Below, in pieces: positions 1,672 through 48,394 of a stretch of DNA of 64,000 nt. Numbering within the stretch: position 1 is the first letter of the stretch; every line of letters starts with the position of its first letter. Made by a program: the position numbers and the translations under genes. The notes under the pieces are model-generated. The model did not search any database and was not told the DNA's origin. It saw only the letters and a program-made list of their open reading frames with translations. This DNA comes from a phage. The stretch is taken from the NCBI GenBank assembly GCA_012455605.1, contig GCA_012455605.1_3618.1. One strand, written 5' to 3'.

Positions 1672-1689
1672 TTTCTTAACTAAACTATC

Positions 1690-1717
1690 AGGGGCTTTAA
1701 AAGGCCCCTTTCTTTTT
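1690..1717 (+). terminator. rho-independent terminator
   Basis: GGGGC...GCCCC hairpin followed by TTTCTTTTT. Confidence 0.6.
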
Positions 1718-2324
1718 GTCTGTATTTCTCCTACCACAAACGGCCCAGCCTGGCAAGTGGAATAATTGACTAGCCATCAATCCCACACACTGTACAAACA
1801 TACATGTAAAATAACTATTGCATAATTTTTCATTGTGTGGTAGCAGGGCCATTTTTACCCGTTTTCTCTCTCAAAATTGCACGTAATGCCGCTATTGCAC
1901 AAAATTTAACCTGATGCACATCTTCAATATCTTGTCAACAACTAAAAATCTTTATAAGTCATACACTTACACACTCACAAAAGCGTGTTCTACGTGAAAA
2001 ATCGAGTATAACTATAGCCGCCAGATCTCAGAATTTACGTACGCTCACCATTCTATAGTCTGCTAAGTATTTATTCCAACCATAGAATAACGGAATAGTC
2101 AATACCTGCATAAAATAATTATTCGTGTAAACTGCATAACATAAATCAGCTTATGTGTCAACATTCTTGGTAAACAGTCCGAAATTGTAATGGTAAGTTA
2201 TAATAAACAGAGAAATCTTTAGTCGTCTAATGTTTACTGTACATAACTATACTGACTGGAATCATTAGATGACTAAGAGAAAGATAAGAAATCATTAACA
2301 ATGCAATTGTTTTATTCGTAACAA

Positions 2325-2700
2325 TAAGGCAACTATGCAAACGAATGGCATGGCGCGACGGAGTCGCGACATAATATAAAAGCAGTAACCATCACCCCCG
2401 TGATAGTTTGTCTGCAAACTATTAATCAGATCATAGTTGCCTTGTATTTAGTTAATCATGACATAACAAGCAAGGCAACTATAGATCTTCTAATAGTTGC
2501 CCTGCTTTTATATTATGTCATCTATTGTAAACAAGTTAATTATTGTCATGCAAACGAATGTCATGGCTTATCATTTTTGAGTAAACAATCTATGCGTGAA
2601 CAGTTAGCTATGTAAACTATTAGACATGTAAACTATTGAGAATGTAAACAGTAAAGGGAGTGAATAGTGATAGCGTAAACAGTCAGGCATGTCAATTATG
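2325..2700. repeat. iteron-like cluster of short direct and inverted repeats
   Basis: AAGGCAACTAT in 4 copies (2 forward, 2 inverted: about 2326, 2433, 2471, 2493); TGCAAACGAATG(G/T)CATGG twice (about 2335 and 2548); TGTAAAC(T/A) words at about 2525, 2580, 2609, 2626, 2642, 2672; many ATGTCA words 2687-2750. Confidence 0.5.
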
Positions 2701-3255
2701 TTCAGTGTCACCATTATGTCATATTGTGTCACAGTATGCCCAGTATGTCAGACAAGTTTTTCTCCTCTTTGTCAAGTGCTGCATGAAAAATTTACAATCT
2801 GGTATGGTAGCATTTTTGCGGCCCTGTTTACATTCAGTTGTGTATGTATAAGCCTTGTTGTGTGGGCGTTTAGACGTCTAGACGGTTGGAAGTCTACAGG
2901 TCAATATCTAATCTATTGGTTGCTAACTATATCCCACACAAATAGTAAGAAATATAATTGTTATGTGTGTAAACTGTAACTCATGTTATCAATCCCTGTA
3001 TGGATCGCCAGTGGTGCGCATAATGGGTATTATGTTAAATTGCCCGTAATGATAACAGTTCTCACAATGATAGGTATTCTCATTCAATCCCACAAGATAG
3101 GTTGCAAATGTTGTGCCACTGTGTGAACGGCCTCACCTATTAATTTGCCACACTGCCCCGATATTTGAGAATTGTTATAAGAATGAGAATGATTCCCATT
3201 TCGTCCGCCTGGCAGCACTCCAGTCGCTACCGCTCATAACAGGGCAGAACTAGAC

Positions 3256-3794
3256 CCTCTTCAGATATTTCTGGCTGACTCTTCAGGTCTGTGTGGGAAA
3301 AGCCAACCTCTCCGGCGGGAAGGGGGGGTCAATTAAAAAATTTACGGGGTATATGAAGCGCTCTTCAGGTAAGGCATGTATTATGGGATGAAACCCTCTT
3401 CAGGCAATGATATTTGTGGGTGTGATATTTGCTGGAAAGCCAGATATGACGGGACTCCCGGCGGGGCAGGGGTAGTACAGGAAGGGAAAATATGGGGATG
3501 TAGTTGGGGAAATTGATCAGACAGGTGGAGTATAGTATATGTTACAAGTATGTTAAATATGGATGGTGAATATCTATAGGATTTGTGTGTAAAATCAAAG
3601 ACTTAAGTGGTGTTGTGGTATTTTCTATAAATAATTCAAGTTTAATAGGGAATATTTGTCAGAAAGGTAGGTTCAGGTTATTTAAAGTTGTATTTCAGAT
3701 GCATGTTTACAGAAGCAGGTAACCCCCCTCCCCCTTCGGCTACCATTCACCTTTTCCTCTAACTGGTACTTAAACACTTATTCAGACTCTTCAG
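3256..3794. repeat. dispersed CTCTTCAG(G) 9-mer repeats with G-rich CGGCGGG-A-GGGG motifs
   Basis: CTCTTCAG(G) at about 3256, 3289, 3361, 3394, 3786 and again at 4435; CTCCGGCGGGAAGGGGGGG at about 3310 and CTCCCGGCGGGGCAGGGG at about 3466; no ORF over 60 aa in 2980-3930. Confidence 0.45.
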
Positions 3795-4146
3795 GTTATC
3801 ACCCATATATCATATGGCAGTGACTGGTGTCCTCAGGCCCCTCTTTCGTCACCCGTCCGCTTCGCCATGCTAATGCCATAGCCAGTGGTTCGGTTGTTCA
3901 CCCTGTTCACTCAGGTGTATCTCCATACCCCTTCAAACCGAAGAGAACAGAAAACCCGAATTACTCGGTAAAAGAAAAGAGAAGAACTTAATTTTATCAG
4001 GATAGGCAAGAATGTCAAGGCATGACTGCTCACTAAACAAGCAAACAGTCATGTGTGGGAGGTAAGTGATTGTGGTGGTAGGAAATTTAGTTGAAAGATG
4101 TGTTATAGGTGCTCCCAGCACTTTTAGCCGGGCAGCTAGTTGTGTG

Positions 4147-4483: not shown

Positions 4484-4897
4484 TCATAGTCTACCACCTC
4501 TGAACTCTTCGTGCTCCGGCATGATAGAGAACCAGATATCTACGATGTCTTCCCACGTTAGGTCATCAGCCTCAGGATCTACCTGGAGCGAAGATGGAGA
4601 ATATTCAGAATCGAAGTTTTCCTCTTTCACTGGCTCAGCCAAGGGACATATAGTCACTCCTTTGGATGTCTCTTCAGATGCATGTGTGTTTATCATGTTC
4701 CACCCGTGAGTATTCCGGCAACAGCCGCTATGGACGTAATGATCATCAGGATCACCACTAAAACTTCGGACAATGTTCTCATTGTGTATCCTATATTCTC
4801 TAAACGATGTGTGGATAATATCACGAGGGCGGTAATGTGTCAACAGAAACGCCGCGAGGGTTTGGTTAAAATCCGAGCGTATGGTGATTTGGGTCAA
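4484..4897 (-). CDS. hypothetical protein
   Basis: ORF in track; start uncertain. Confidence 0.3.
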   Translation of the reverse strand: MTQITIRSDFNQTLAAFLLTHYRPRDIIHTSFREYRIHNENIVRSFSGDPDDHYVHSGCCRNTHGWNMINTHASEETSKGVTICPLAEPVKEENFDSEYSPSSLQVDPEADDLTWEDIVDIWFSIMPEHEEFRGGRL

Positions 4898-13371: not shown

Positions 13372-13571
13372 CCCTCATCGCACGTCTGATATAACCACTC
13401 TATAAAATCTTGATACCATTCGCCCTCTGAGCGCTCCGTAGGCCAATAATCTTCACCCTCTCGTGCATTAAAATCTGAGTATTCAACTTTCCACTCCTTT
13501 ACCAGCTCGTGGAGAAGGTTTTCAGCCTGCTCTAAAGATTTATTTTTTACCATTGCTGTCTCCTTTTTCAA
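13368..13571 (-). CDS. hypothetical protein (67 aa)
   Basis: ORF. Confidence 0.4.
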   Translation of the reverse strand: MKKETAMVKNKSLEQAENLLHELVKEWKVEYSDFNAREGEDYWPTERSEGEWYQDFIEWLYQTCDEG

Positions 13572-13772
13572 GATAGTTATACATCAGAACTGCACCACCT
13601 AAGATGGCTACCAGTAACAATATCCCAGATAGCATCTCAATAAACATGGCTTGAAACACTGGAAGGTCTCCCTAAATTAACGCACCATTTTAAATACATG
13701 CTCTTTTCCCATAAAGGTGCCTGGCTAAGATCTGCGTAGAACGCAATCTCTTTAAGAACAGTATAGATAGTT

Positions 13773-14000
13773 TTAGGTGCGGTCTCCATCCCTACTCTCC
13801 TTCCTGATATTCTTGTAGTAATCAACTAGGCACATTATTACGATGAAGATAACAACAGGCCAAAAAGGTGCAGCAGTGATGATGGTGATAAAATCATCAA
13901 ACTTCACCCTTCGTCTGGACACGATGCATACACCTGTCAAGAATACCGCTGTTATAACGGATATTACCAGGTAACCTATTAACACAACATTTATACTCAT
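13773..14000 (-). CDS. hypothetical small membrane protein (75 aa, two predicted TM segments); possible holin-like
   Basis: two hydrophobic stretches and a charged C-terminus; holin assignment is speculative. Confidence 0.35.
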   Translation of the reverse strand: MSINVVLIGYLVISVITAVFLTGVCIVSRRRVKFDDFITIITAAPFWPVVIFIVIMCLVDYYKNIRKESRDGDRT

Positions 14001-42868: not shown

Positions 42869-43219
42869 ATGAAAGATGGGGATAAGCTGCTATATCTTAA
42901 AGTCCCCCTTGAAATACTGTCTATGTCAAAAGTTTTGAATGACACAACTGGGGAGGTTGTTGTTCTTGACTTGTATGACAAGATCGTATACTGCTACCTG
43001 CACAACTGGTATAAACTTAGAGGAAATTCACGCTTCACACCCAGCACAAGGAAAATTGCAGCAGATGTTGGGATAAAGAAAACAAAAGCAGCAGCGTGCG
43101 TTAAAACTTTAGAATGTGCAGGAGTGGTTGAAACATCCACACAAGGGAGAGGTAAAAGATGCACATTTTCCAAAGTTTTGCCACCAGAAGAAGTTATTCG
43201 GATGTCAACAACTGGTTAG
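42869..43219 (+). CDS. hypothetical protein with HTH-like segment
   Basis: STRKIAADVGIKKTKAAACVKTLECAGVVE looks like a winged-helix/HTH. Confidence 0.4.
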   Translation: MKDGDKLLYLKVPLEILSMSKVLNDTTGEVVVLDLYDKIVYCYLHNWYKLRGNSRFTPSTRKIAADVGIKKTKAAACVKTLECAGVVETSTQGRGKRCTFSKVLPPEEVIRMSTTG

Positions 43220-43294
43220 ACCAGTAAAAACTTAAATATCTGTACTATAAGGATTCGTATGTTTTATGTTCGCCATGGAACGGATACTATTAAC

Positions 43295-43353
43295 TGTCCG
43301 TAATACGGACACTACTGTCCGTCACGCGGACACATCTGCCCGTAATACGGACA
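43295..43353. promoter_or_regulatory. three tandem palindromic operator-like sites at 21 bp spacing
   Basis: TGTCCGTA-A-TACGGACA (43295-43311), TGTCCGT-cac-GCGGACA (43316-43332), TGCCCGTA-A-TACGGACA (43337-43353). Confidence 0.55.
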
Positions 43354-43489
43354 CATAAAGAATATAACTAAAATAACTAAATAATAAAAAATAAAAGATC
43401 TAGTACTTATGGTACTAAGTACATATACTTAACTTATGTAGAATATACTAGATCCTAAGTACCATGTTTTAAATTTATTACTTACTATG

Positions 43490-43740
43490 GGCAGTGTCGG
43501 CCCTTCATTGGCACTCGCCTACGAGGGGCGAGATGCCGGGCCTCCTTGGTGCACACAATAACAGAAGTGCACACATGCAGGTCTGTTAACATGTGTGGGA
43601 GCGAAGCTATAGCGCAGGCCAAAGGCCGAGCACTGATGTGGACCACCGACGAAAGCTTGCCAGCGCCGTAAGGAGTCGGTTGAGAGTCTCCCGCGCGAGC
43701 TTGGATGAAGTTTATGTGTGGAAACTGACAAGAAGGTCCC
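43490..43740 (+). ncRNA. GC-rich structured element, candidate non-coding RNA or regulatory structure (strand unknown)
   Basis: local GC spike in an AT-rich genome; nested hairpins GGCA-CTCGCC...GGCGAG-TGCC, GTGCACACA repeated, CACATG...CATGTG, GGCC-aaa-GGCC; only a low-complexity antisense ORF. Confidence 0.3.
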
Positions 43741-43857
43741 TAAATCGCTCCACAGCTATATAAACTATACCAGGTAATGCAATCGCACCAGTTTGATAGA
43801 AAAGCTCGTTACAAAGCGATACAGTGAGTTTTTCTATAACTTGAAGAGGAGGCAGCT

Positions 43858-44436
43858 ATGGGTTCACGCAAAGATGACCGTGAAAAGATTGCAAAACGTT
43901 ATCAGAATGAAGAACAGATGGAGAAAACTTTCAAGTGGAAGCCAGGTTTCCAGCGTAATCATTCTAACGCTCGTGATCGTAAGCATCCGGATAAGTGGCT
44001 AACACCGCCAAATGATGGCATGCAGGTTGGGGATGAGAAGGAGATGTCGCCTGGAAAAGATGGCAACTACATTCGCACTAAGGACGCTGGTCCAAAGGAT
44101 GACAGCTATCTTGTAGATAAGGTTCTTGATGGTATCAATGTAGATGTTGACACTGCACGAAACCTTTTTCTTGGGTGGTATCGCACAGGTTTTTTCGACA
44201 TCAAGGCTATTCGTCGTGTTTGTGATATTAAAAAGTCTGCATATGATGACGACTCGTTACATCGCACCCTGAGACAATATTCAGAAAGATATGGTCATCC
44301 GGTTATCACTCTTGACGATGTTAACGAAGTGATGTATCATGCAGATGTTGTTGCAGGAAGATTTGGTGATGCATATCTTGATATCCTTTCTGCAAAGGAT
44401 GAGGTAATGTTAAATAAGATTTACTATGAACGCTGA
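43858..44436 (+). CDS. hypothetical protein (192 aa)
   Basis: ORF with strong RBS gaggagg. Confidence 0.5.
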   Translation: MGSRKDDREKIAKRYQNEEQMEKTFKWKPGFQRNHSNARDRKHPDKWLTPPNDGMQVGDEKEMSPGKDGNYIRTKDAGPKDDSYLVDKVLDGINVDVDTARNLFLGWYRTGFFDIKAIRRVCDIKKSAYDDDSLHRTLRQYSERYGHPVITLDDVNEVMYHADVVAGRFGDAYLDILSAKDEVMLNKIYYER

Positions 44437-44954: not shown

Positions 44955-45241
44955 GGTTGTTTTCGTGTATCATGATGAATATCCAATTTAAAGATGAATT
45001 TGATGGCTTTATCTCTGGATGCTTTGAAACAGGGTTCGGAGAAGACTGAGTTCCCCTTAGAGGGCTTGATAGTGCACCACACTTAAAATGGTAGGGGCAG
45101 CCAGCACATGACGATGTGACCCAAGCCAACCTGTAATAAGGTCGAGCCAAAGTGCGGTAATGGGCTCTGGTAACCCACTTGTTGGGTCTTGCTGGTCCAG
45201 GACGCTGGACAAGTCGCAGGGAATACCACCCTGCGGCGAAC

Positions 45242-45270
45242 TTGACAATCAGTATTTGCTATGATAAAAT
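45242..45270 (+). promoter_or_regulatory. sigma70-like promoter (TTGACA-17-TAAAAT)
   Basis: consensus -35, 17 bp spacer. Confidence 0.55.
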
Positions 45271-45298
45271 CCACCTATCACGTGATAATGGAGGAAAC

Positions 45299-45637
45299 AT
45301 GGCGGATACAACTAAAAAGCGTCGCCGTAGAGGCAGACCTCTGAAAGAGGAGTCCAACGCCATTCAGCTAGAGAAGAACATCCTTGATATGAAGGAATCT
45401 TTTATAGCGATGGTTCCAGAAGCTCACAAAGTTTTAAGAGAGCTGATGTTGGACCCGAAAACCAAACAAAATATTCGTCAAAGCATTGCAGAGTATGTTC
45501 TTGATAAGGCAGACCGAATGCAGGAAGAATATGATGAGATGTTTGGTGAAGAGGAAGAGGTGGTAGTGGAAGAGGCTGAAAAACCAGCACCTTTTATGCC
45601 ATTTACTACAGAAATACAGCCTGTTAGCAATAGCTAA
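45299..45637 (+). CDS. hypothetical protein with basic N-terminus and acidic C-terminus (113 aa); possible DNA-binding protein
   Basis: KKRRRRGRPLKEE N-terminus; RBS ggagg. Confidence 0.4.
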   Translation: MADTTKKRRRRGRPLKEESNAIQLEKNILDMKESFIAMVPEAHKVLRELMLDPKTKQNIRQSIAEYVLDKADRMQEEYDEMFGEEEEVVVEEAEKPAPFMPFTTEIQPVSNS

Positions 45638-46202: not shown

Positions 46203-46299
46203 GCTAGGTAAGCCCTTTGGCAAGGGCGAGGATTTTTAATCCTGAAAATAGACGAGGTAGTCGTTGAATACATAGGTGGTTCGATTCCATCACCTAGCA
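46203..46299 (+). tRNA. aberrant tRNA-like gene (Leu-type body, non-canonical anticodon loop; possible pseudo-tRNA)
   Basis: acceptor GCTAGGT/ACCTAGC, D-arm GCCC-tttggcaa-GGGC, T-arm GGTGG-ttcgatt-CCATC, discriminator A; anticodon region AGGAT-tttta-ATCCT has a 5-nt loop (or UUU in the alternative fold); over-long variable region; no encoded CCA. Confidence 0.4.
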
Positions 46300-46306
46300 C
46301 CTTTTT

Positions 46307-47650: not shown

Positions 47651-48075
47651 TGTCTAAGATTTACGGACCGTGTTCTGAAAAGCAGAAGATGATCCTCGAA
47701 AACGATGCAGATATTTTGGTAATCGGCGGTGCCGCAGGGTCTGGCAAGTCGTTCCTCTTGCAGTTGATGCCACTTAAAATTATTGATGACCCCCACAGCT
47801 CTGTGGTTATGTTCCGAAGAACAACCCCACAGTTGGAAGGTGAGGGTGGACTATGGCCTAAAGCAGTAGCTATTTATAGTGATCTGCCTGAAAACATTAA
47901 GCCAAAGTTCAGAGAGAAGGATCATAAGTTCATTTTTCCACGGTTTGATCCGAACACTGGCAAGTGGGATAGAAGCAAAAAGGGAGCTGTTGTAAAATAC
48001 TGCCACATGGAGTATGTACAAGATAAGCTTAACCATCAGGGGCTTGAGTACACCATGGTTTGCTTCGATGAGGGT
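47650..48075 (+). CDS. terL: terminase large subunit, exon 1 (ATPase N-terminus: Walker A to Walker B)
   Basis: Walker A GGAAGSGKS; ends with YTMVCFDEG (Walker B-like) just before the stop; downstream ORF supplies the rest of the protein. Confidence 0.7.
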
Positions 48076-48394
48076 TAATTTGTAGCTCTCGTAAAACCTC
48101 CCTAATTGCGGGGAAATCTTTATTATTGACACCACCAGCCTGTTATGGTAACATAATAGAGGCTTCGAAGAGAGATCGAAGGTATGGTAACAGTGTGTTA
48201 ATTTAGATAATCCGCAGCGAAGCATCCGAGAGGATGAACGTTCAACGACTAGTCGAAAGACGTAGAATCAAGCGATTCGAAACGGGAGGGTAAGCGGTTG
48301 TTGTCGCTTATAAGATATAGTCTGGTCTGCATGGAGACATGCAGCTGCCTGAAAATGGCGGGGCAAGACTAGCGACCTTGCCCGAACATGAACG
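48076..48394 (+). mobile_element. group I self-splicing intron (IA2-like, no ORF) in the terminase large subunit gene
   Basis: core elements present in canonical order: P AATTGCGGGGAAA (48104-48116), Q AATCCGCAGC (48209-48218), R GTTCAACGACTAGTCGAAAG (48240-48259), S AAGATATAGTC (48312-48322); P1 pairing of exon GAGGGU (48070-48075) with intron GCUCUC (48085-48090) including U-G at the splice site; 3-prime boundary inferred from frame (alternatives to about 48430). Confidence 0.8.

Follow-up and report, generated by a model that had tools for sequence, protein, structure and literature searches.

A strand-specific, hairpin-rich non-coding element common to rV5-like phages and plasmid-like Escherichia coli replicons, with a possible role at a replication origin

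What function could maintain a short, GC-rich, hairpin-filled stretch between two genes of an otherwise AT-rich phage genome? The present analysis addresses this question for an element at about 43493-43840 of a phage DNA stretch of 64,000 nt (contig GCA_012455605.1_3618.1, NCBI GenBank assembly GCA_012455605.1; hereafter the window, to whose positions the coordinates below refer). An earlier note, made from the letters of the window, had described a highly structured GC-rich element of about 250 nt at 43490-43740 without a credible open reading frame (ORF), had considered a structured leader, a small RNA, or part of a packaging signal, and had named an Rfam search and covariation in relatives as checks. 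The element proved to be a structured family that is absent from Rfam and for which no description was found in the literature. Its function is tentatively interpreted as that of a cis-acting, strand-specific module of a lambda/IncQ-like replication origin, in which a hairpin would give helper specificity.

Conservation, coding status, and structure of the element

A search of a phage collection with 801 bases around the element returned 119 phage records at 80-98% identity, all of them Vequintavirus (rV5-like virulent myophages of E. coli), and the element was present once in each of the 119. Eighteen of these 119 records are named 'Campylobacter phage' (MG0656xx) and are up to ~97.5% identical to E. 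coli rV5-like phages across the region; they are probably mislabelled or contaminant assemblies. The element was also found in a more distant phage contig (L003, downstream protein 81% identical), in a further phage lineage (lineage B, consisting of L080, an IMG/VR contig of 121 kb, and L081, a Logan assembly), and, when complete E. coli genomes were searched, on circular 'plasmids' of only 13.2-13.7 kb, which are treated below as probable satellites. The core of the element is single-copy in the whole phage genome. It was not found at the phosphoesterase-homolog loci of three related genera (4MG, Ro1, and PHB05; other Vequintavirinae and Stephanstirmvirinae), where the gene order differs.

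The GC spike was confirmed, with a GC content of 0.595 in 43500-43699 compared with 0.32-0.44 in the flanks and a background of about 40%. The + strand of 43485-43760 folds at -106.8 kcal/mol (z = -2.53 against dinucleotide shuffles; z = -2.05 for the - strand), and these z-scores by themselves are only a moderate signal. The interval 43490-43740 does hold a real element, but the conserved unit is longer, extending over about 43493-43840. On the 5' side it is sharply bounded, at GTCGGCCC near 43496, as the upstream half of the intergenic region is unrelated in L003, whereas L003 is ~90% identical from GTCGGCCC onward; a second conserved block in L003 reaches the start codon of the downstream gene.

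The earlier statement that no credible ORF is present also held. RefSeq annotates ORF78 (rv5_gp074, 56 amino acids (aa), 43593-43763, + strand) across the element, and an antisense ORF of 70 aa is present as well. Among 12 phage sequences (alignment A4, by eye), the changes in ORF78 appear to be mostly non-synonymous. In satellite homologs there are insertions of 40-77 nt whose lengths break the triplet frame, and no reading frame is conserved across the satellite and lineage-B homologs, which have large insertions of this kind, indicating that the ORF78 region is non-coding. The Rfam search was negative, as the Rfam 15 covariance models, which cover riboswitches, sRNAs, ribozymes, tRNA-like RNAs, tmRNA, 6S RNA, GOLLD/ROOL, and CRISPR repeats among others, gave nothing in 43490-43840 at the gathering threshold, nothing beyond chance matches well under that threshold when E was raised to 10, and no match in the satellite or lineage-B versions of the element. 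ARAGORN also reported nothing at the element.

Base pairing kept by compensatory change was found in the core hairpin Ha (43645-43680, + strand), which consists of the stem ACCGAC/GUCGGU and a conserved 24-nt loop GAAAGCUUGCCAGCGCCGUAAGGA. Seven different Ha stems occur across the lineages, all of them Watson-Crick. In the wider set, 98.3% of cells are paired and six of six pairs change on both sides, compared with 5-60% paired cells when partners were slid and 0 of 500 shuffles reaching the observed values, although the stems were chosen by eye from each sequence, which flatters these pair counts. In a composite alignment, 96.1% of cells pair (34-55% with partners slid), and phage and satellite differ by compensatory changes at three of the six Ha pairs. 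Moreover, hairpin P1 (43499-43542, + strand; outer stem GGCCC/GGGCC, inner stem GGCA-CUCGCC/GGCGAG-A-UGCC) is nearly invariant in 11 phages, with a single stem change in YP6; in plasmid p190, two of its G-C pairs are replaced by U-A through compensatory change, and it was also found in satellite L075. The multiple hairpins seen in the window are thus conserved and covarying in relatives, and Ha is a candidate specificity determinant.

A long-range helix, Pc, is formed by its 5' strand UGUGUGGGAG (43592-43601, + strand) and CUCCCGCGCG (43688-43697), the latter within the 3' motif UGAGAGUCUCCCGCGCGAG (43681-43699, + strand), which is the block conserved most widely. Pc comprises 10 nearly invariant bp, and its three U.G pairs, invariant apart from one unpaired cell, indicate that it exists on the + strand only. 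In L003, a change from CUCCC to CUUCC in the 3' strand is matched by GGGAG to GGAAG in the 5' strand. Pc (-17.8 kcal/mol) is the best pairing for the 3' motif in most lineages, where the UGUGGGA motif is its best upstream partner (-11 to -18 kcal/mol). Furthermore, when a stretch of uniform length (235 nt) was folded for each of 20 homologs, the + strand was more stable than the - strand in all 20, and the element is oriented like the neighbouring genes in every phage and satellite examined. Both covariation and strand specificity, the tests for a structured single-stranded nucleic-acid element, were therefore observed.

The other parts of the element, all on the + strand, are conserved to different degrees. 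Hairpin P2 (43552-43597; CACACA...UGUGUG at its base, inverted repeat I3) has lost one half in rV5 and Murica through an 18-nt deletion between direct repeats, indicating that it is variable and dispensable. The small hairpin P3 (43617-43627; GGCC-AAA-GGCC) belongs to the minimum-free-energy (MFE) fold, and its position is taken by AGCC-CAU-GGCU in satellites, while the junction AUGUGGACC (43636-43644) is near-invariant in phages and satellites. The 3' domain (43700-43840) contains the islands CCCUAAAUCGC (43738-43748), GCAAUCGCA (43779-43787), and AAAGCUCGUUA, which are common to satellites and lineage B, and a terminal hairpin (43796-43807 with 43826-43837; inverted repeat I5) that includes a G.U pair and lies just before the ribosome-binding site of the next gene. 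The 5' strand of Pc is one copy of a recurrent motif, the octamer UGUGUGGG, which separates the hairpin modules and recurs at their boundaries in 2-6 copies per element; it is also enriched in the whole window (14 copies against 2.0 expected), mainly in non-coding DNA. Overall, the phage and satellite alignments show conserved blocks interspersed with hairpins that differ in length and sequence, and the modules are mosaic, that is, present or absent, among satellites.

Several further structures and motifs were considered and rejected. An inner helix in the Ha loop (CUUGC/GUAAG) is absent in satellites and in copy A of satellite L076, and the long-range GGAGCGA/UCGCUCC pairing of the MFE fold is not conserved in L003 or satellites. 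By eye, a GGAC/GUCU pairing and a GGAG/CUCC pseudoknot conflict with phage substitutions or compete with Pc, a hammerhead core (CUGAUG...GAAA) fails because most relatives are without the conserved CUGA, the 3' half of the repeat hairpin of the E. coli type I-E CRISPR repeat (GAGUUCCCCGCGCCAGCGGGG) is absent, and a resemblance to DnaA boxes fails because most copies of the motif have at least two mismatches. A search of the rest of the phage genome for complementary targets of the Ha loop or the junction gave chance-level k-mer matches only.

Plasmid-like carriers and exchange of the core hairpin

The E. coli plasmids carrying the element encode an HK97-type major capsid protein, a Dit-like baseplate hub that is 54% identical to the phage hub, a tail-completion protein, a tape measure, helix-turn-helix (HTH) proteins, and an O/DnaD-like Rep beside 4-7 iterons. 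Their own iterons, which come with an AT-rich tract, lie upstream of the element and strong sigma70 promoters downstream of it. No terminase, portal, sheath, or tube gene was recognised in that part of their proteins that was screened. One record of 39.6 kb contains three element copies, its length corresponding to three 13.2-kb units. A search with the hub protein uncovered many such contigs of 13-15 kb as well as a class of 19-21 kb; members of the family include L007 (NZ_CP020521.1), L005, L006, L010-L012, L037, L044, and L075-L079. Owing to their content of capsid, tail, and Rep genes, the 13-15 kb elements are read, from sequence, as probable satellites of virulent Vequintavirus-like phages. 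Nothing was found in the literature on Vequintavirus satellites or this plasmid family, which is large and apparently undescribed.

Whole-genome blastn of three satellites against the phage revealed the element as the main non-coding similarity, the other matches being one 55-nt stretch and weak coding matches. The 55-nt stretch (82% identical; window 4621-4677 and L007 10882-10938) encodes an 18-aa motif that a small phage ORF (PHROG 16356) has in common with the satellite Rep-like protein and that may be a mimicked, replication-linked protein-interaction motif. The core of the element in Vequintavirus is 84-87% identical to that of p190-type satellites, with a similar score against L075, while the proteins common to phage and satellites are only ~50% identical. 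A scan with a gapped pattern yielded chance matches only among genome contigs and four true homologs among 35 matches in metagenome contigs, the rest being chance; L008 was rejected as a homolog, its match being a chance one within a methyltransferase gene. Blastn of divergent satellite units against the phage collection gave no match.

Exchange of the hairpin was observed within lineage B. L080 and L081 are 88-92% identical and the flanks of their elements align well, whereas the Ha stem, the loop, and the 3' motif differ (CCGGA is combined with loop type 2 in one, GACGGC with a type-1-like loop in the other). Over 52 nt, the L080 core has the very sequence of copy B in satellite L076, which contains two different complete element units in tandem (reverse strand, 300-1100 and 13500-13971 of that contig). 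This 52-nt identity, together with the core and protein identities given above, shows that certain phages and certain satellites have matching hairpins, which vary between relatives.

The origin-like neighbourhood and the readings it supports

The element sits in a 640-bp intergenic region whose flanking genes are both on the + strand. The upstream gene (42869-43219, + strand) encodes a 116-aa winged-helix (wHTH) protein, annotated as 'replication initiation protein' or 'transcriptional regulator', which matches PHROG replication-initiation families and Pfam HTH_36. It is followed by three iterons CTGTCCGTAATACGGACAC (43294-43354), detected by a repeat search, which are each internally palindromic and have a 21-bp spacing; the wHTH protein is probably the iteron-binding protein. 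The number of iterons differs among near-identical Vequintaviruses (alignment A4), with three in the window, nomine, and CarlMeissner and four in most others. Next comes an AT-rich tract (43355-43492; GC 0.32-0.35) with the nested inverted repeats I2, I7, I8, and I10, which is a candidate DNA-unwinding region. This order of initiator-like wHTH gene, three to four cognate iterons, AT-rich tract, and element is constant, and the layout recurs in three phage lineages with unrelated iterons (rV5 type, L003, and lineage B). L003 has a divergent 143-aa wHTH homolog (same PHROG families), unrelated repeats TGCATCAGAT, a purine-rich AT tract, and the same element, the wHTH protein and the iterons having been exchanged together, and lineage B has four iterons AAGGGCCAAATAATGGCCC, an AT-rich tract, the element, and then a sigma70 promoter. 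Direct repeats spaced by about two helical turns, an AT-rich tract, and a matching initiator-like gene, which together make up the layout of an iteron-type origin, are thus all present.

The fixed place of the element beside the iterons and the AT-rich tract points to a role in replication, and its faithful copying in cis from the helper is most simply explained by a site for helper machinery, so that the element is probably the handle through which satellites use that machinery. In the origin reading, which is offered as possible rather than established, the initiator-like wHTH protein would bind its own iterons, and the adjoining AT-rich tract would then open. The + strand of the element, either as a transcript crossing it or as unwound single-stranded DNA (ssDNA), would fold into hairpins closed by the long-range helix, and Ha with its conserved loop and flanks would be recognised by a factor encoded by the helper phage, most plausibly in priming DNA synthesis or loading the replisome. 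The satellites would retain their own Rep and iterons for plasmid life and would carry a copy of the helper hairpin module, through which helper machinery could act on satellite DNA; a change of the hairpin would then change the match between helper and satellite. With slightly more reserve, the element may be regarded as a new class of modular, strand-specific RNA/ssDNA adaptor whose swappable hairpin sets which Vequintavirus-like helper can be exploited. As to the active form, RNA is somewhat favoured over DNA because of the U.G pairs, the C(UUCG)G loops, the asymmetric internal loops (bulges are present as well), and the sense orientation of the element. The many 3-nt loops and the GCGAAGC-type mini-hairpins of the element are more DNA-like, mini-hairpins of this type being more typical of DNA.

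Several points weigh against an origin at this place. The skew analysis in the rV5 genome paper located no origin. The distance between iterons and element is ~500 bp in plasmid p190, and no protein co-varying with Ha between L080 and L081 was evident in the 9 kb available. The selection of the Ha stems by eye also counts here. Moreover, the iterons could serve as operator sites for the regulator of an RNA gene, and the complementary stems, 22-24 bp apart, could be inverted half-sites for a dimeric DNA-binding protein. Finally, another region of the window (1672-4146), with a nearby DnaA box, could be the true origin (ori) or packaging (pac) site.

That region spans ~2.4 kb without a credible ORF and corresponds to a 'non-coding' box of the rV5 paper. 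Within it are small hairpins, clusters of the motifs TGTGTGGG and CTCTTCAGG, and two runs complementary to each other, of G at 3317-3328 and of C at 3723-3735, and a perfect DnaA box TGTGGATAA (TTATCCACA on the - strand) is located at 4810-4818, at the edge of this large non-coding region. It is also a candidate second cis-acting or non-coding-RNA region.

The rival that survives best, although unlikely, is a role as RNA only, without any link to replication. The element would then be either a cis-acting regulatory RNA for antitermination similar to nut, put, or EAR, with Ha as a protein-binding hairpin near the start of a long early-to-late unit, or a processed, trans-acting non-coding RNA serving as a decoy or sponge. 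The rV5 genome paper assigns the + strand here to a long transcription unit that starts from a divergent promoter region ~1.7 kb upstream and continues through the tRNA genes, the terminase, and the structural genes, and the promoter and terminator tables of its authors have no entry within this intergenic region. A scan of 43000-44000 for promoters and terminators also predicted none, and early transcripts should therefore cross the element, which lies 1.7 kb into a unit that itself contains terminators; such read-through counts for the origin reading as well. The sense orientation relative to the surrounding genes everywhere, the folding specific to the + strand with its conserved U.G pairs, and the loops, bulges, and asymmetric internal loops named above fit such a role too. 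In addition, the variable hairpin within conserved flanks recalls the specificity swapping of nut/boxB, and the tandem units of L076 resemble separate genes. However, the same scan and tables provide no promoter or terminator that would delimit an RNA, and the sigma70 promoters 3' of the element in satellites and lineage B would give main downstream transcripts without it. Furthermore, a trans-acting RNA would need no copying by a satellite, the 3-nt loops and mini-hairpins count against RNA, and the constant neighbourhood of iterons, AT-rich tract, and initiator would be left unexplained, by a small RNA as well.

The suggestion of a structured leader fared unevenly. A structured non-coding element is supported by the covariation and by its occurrence in 119 phages and in unrelated replicons, but as its main role a leader of the downstream gene is weak, because in satellites and lineage B the next gene is separated from the element by a strong sigma70 promoter, and because the lineage-B homolog of that gene lies 5 kb away. 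The gene, gp073 (43858-44436, + strand), has its start at 43858 preceded by GAAGAGGAGG and encodes a 192-aa protein with no function assigned, its sole match being a PHROG of unknown function. As a dedicated partner of the element, gp073 was rejected on account of the distant position of this 50%-identical homolog; it is a neighbour of the element and not demonstrably a part of it.

A packaging recognition site (pac) of headful phages, which satellites would copy for packaging by the helper terminase into their own small capsids, appears improbable. A shared packaging site is the commonest reason for helper-like non-coding DNA in satellites (cos of phages P2 and P4, cos-type phage-inducible chromosomal islands (PICIs)), which speaks for this possibility. 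So does the lack of a recognised terminase gene among the satellite proteins screened, as does the matching of hairpin types between phages and satellites, which fits terminase specificity. Moreover, a variable wHTH protein with its own repeats by a conserved site recalls cosB/Nu1 of lambda and phage 21 beside the conserved cosN. The rV5 genome is circularly permuted according to its genome paper, so a pac site must exist, and the gene of the large terminase subunit (TerL) lies ~4 kb downstream of the element, with no small subunit (TerS) annotated in these phages. On the other hand, the pac and cos sites described for double-stranded DNA phages act as duplex DNA and are not known to show strand-specific folding, wobble helices, or structure-only conservation. 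The wHTH protein matches replication initiators and not TerS families, the neighbouring proteins are without terminase domains, and the 161-aa HTH protein of the satellites could be their own TerS. Public genome records start at arbitrary places, with no sign of ends here, and a pac site would likewise leave the constant initiator, iteron, and AT-tract neighbourhood unexplained. That ORF78 is a real 56-aa protein gene with incidental hairpins can hardly be entertained, since conservation tracks base pairing and not codons and the substitutions and insertions described above run against it, although it is annotated as a coding sequence in RefSeq and several GenBank records and two phage indels are multiples of three. 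The remaining probability lies with functions outside these readings.

Further along the window, a few other features were recorded. A 112-aa protein (45299-45637) with the N-terminus KKRRRRGRP and an acidic C-terminus, unannotated in all records, is a candidate for the small terminase subunit, for which these phages have no annotated gene. Another structured element may lie at 45050-45240, a further GC-rich stretch (~190 nt) that has no ORF and no Rfam match and directly precedes a sigma70 promoter of consensus type (45243-45271). In the tRNA cluster, a 99-nt tRNA-like gene (46203-46301), for which ARAGORN reads a 4-base anticodon (atcc), bears varying public labels (Lys, Asp|Gly, and 'OTHER'). 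A group I intron was detected at 48066-48344 (Rfam, 84 bits), consistent with the introns in the large terminase gene described in the rV5 paper.

Relation to known systems and significance

By analogy, the system closest to the proposed origin module would be the IncQ oriV with ssi hairpins that are read by the plasmid's own primase. The oriV of RSF1010 (IncQ) likewise has iterons for a dedicated initiator, an AT-rich segment, and conserved hairpins with a conserved flank, and its ssiA and ssiB act only as single strands and are specific for the cognate, element-encoded primase RepB'. In contrast to RSF1010, the present element is far larger (about 200-450 nt) and modular, has a long-range closing helix, apparently uses one strand, is common to a virulent phage and putative satellites, and is known from sequence alone; to our knowledge, it has no sequence similarity to the known ssi sites (ssiA and ssiB). 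The lambda ori/O system also has three to four internally symmetric iterons by an AT-rich tract, and in lambdoid phages the DNA-binding domain of the initiator and the iterons are exchanged together while the adjacent sequence is conserved. However, in lambda the ori is part of the O gene itself and a large, structured, GC-rich module is missing, and the putative initiator here is only 116-143 aa long. A folded transcript across an origin, with structure deciding its use, is known from ColE1 RNA II and from the R-loop origins of T7 and T4 (oriF/oriG), and these origin transcripts may be seen as an RNA version of the same idea, although no dedicated promoter, RNase H site, or antisense regulator was found here and, compared with R-loop origins, the G-richness of the + strand is weak (skew +0.08).

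Dependence of a satellite with its own initiator and iterons on helper machinery is also seen in cos of phages P2 and P4, in cos-type PICIs, and in the hijack of ICP1 by PLE (RepA and iterons), and, as in such helper-satellite cis sites, a short non-coding block here resembles the helper much more closely than any protein does. Unlike duplex cos sites, the shared block is structure-constrained, strand-specific, and multi-hairpin, with a swappable hairpin, and unlike P2/P4, PICI, and PLE, the putative satellites are plasmid-like and encode a capsid protein, baseplate hub, and tape measure. Lambda nut (boxA and boxB, N), HK022 put, and Bacillus EAR resemble the element in their conserved flanks, in a hairpin that varies between related phages, and in their sense orientation in a long operon, whereas the element is much larger, has no adjacent N-like gene, and is followed by promoters in satellites and lineage B. 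Similar to GOLLD and ROOL RNAs, the element is large, multi-domain, phage-borne, and near tRNA genes, but it has no match to Rfam models, is smaller, and belongs to a different host group.

Whatever the mechanism, ORF78 should no longer be annotated as a gene, and a structured family absent from Rfam is now available with natural variation sufficient for structure work. Coliphages of the rV5 type are in wide use for therapy and biocontrol, and an origin module at this locus would be the first candidate cis-acting control region for this phage group, as well as a sequence tag by which plasmid-like satellites of virulent E. coli phages, a large family so far hidden, can be recognised. Because the hairpin is matched and swappable, helper-satellite specificity would become testable through hairpin exchange. 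Furthermore, if the element does act as an adaptor, it would bring to light an abundant family of plasmid-borne E. coli satellites with capsid and tail genes of their own, along with an arms race between helper and satellite conducted via a nucleic-acid hairpin, in which phages would alter the hairpin and satellites would stack tandem units.

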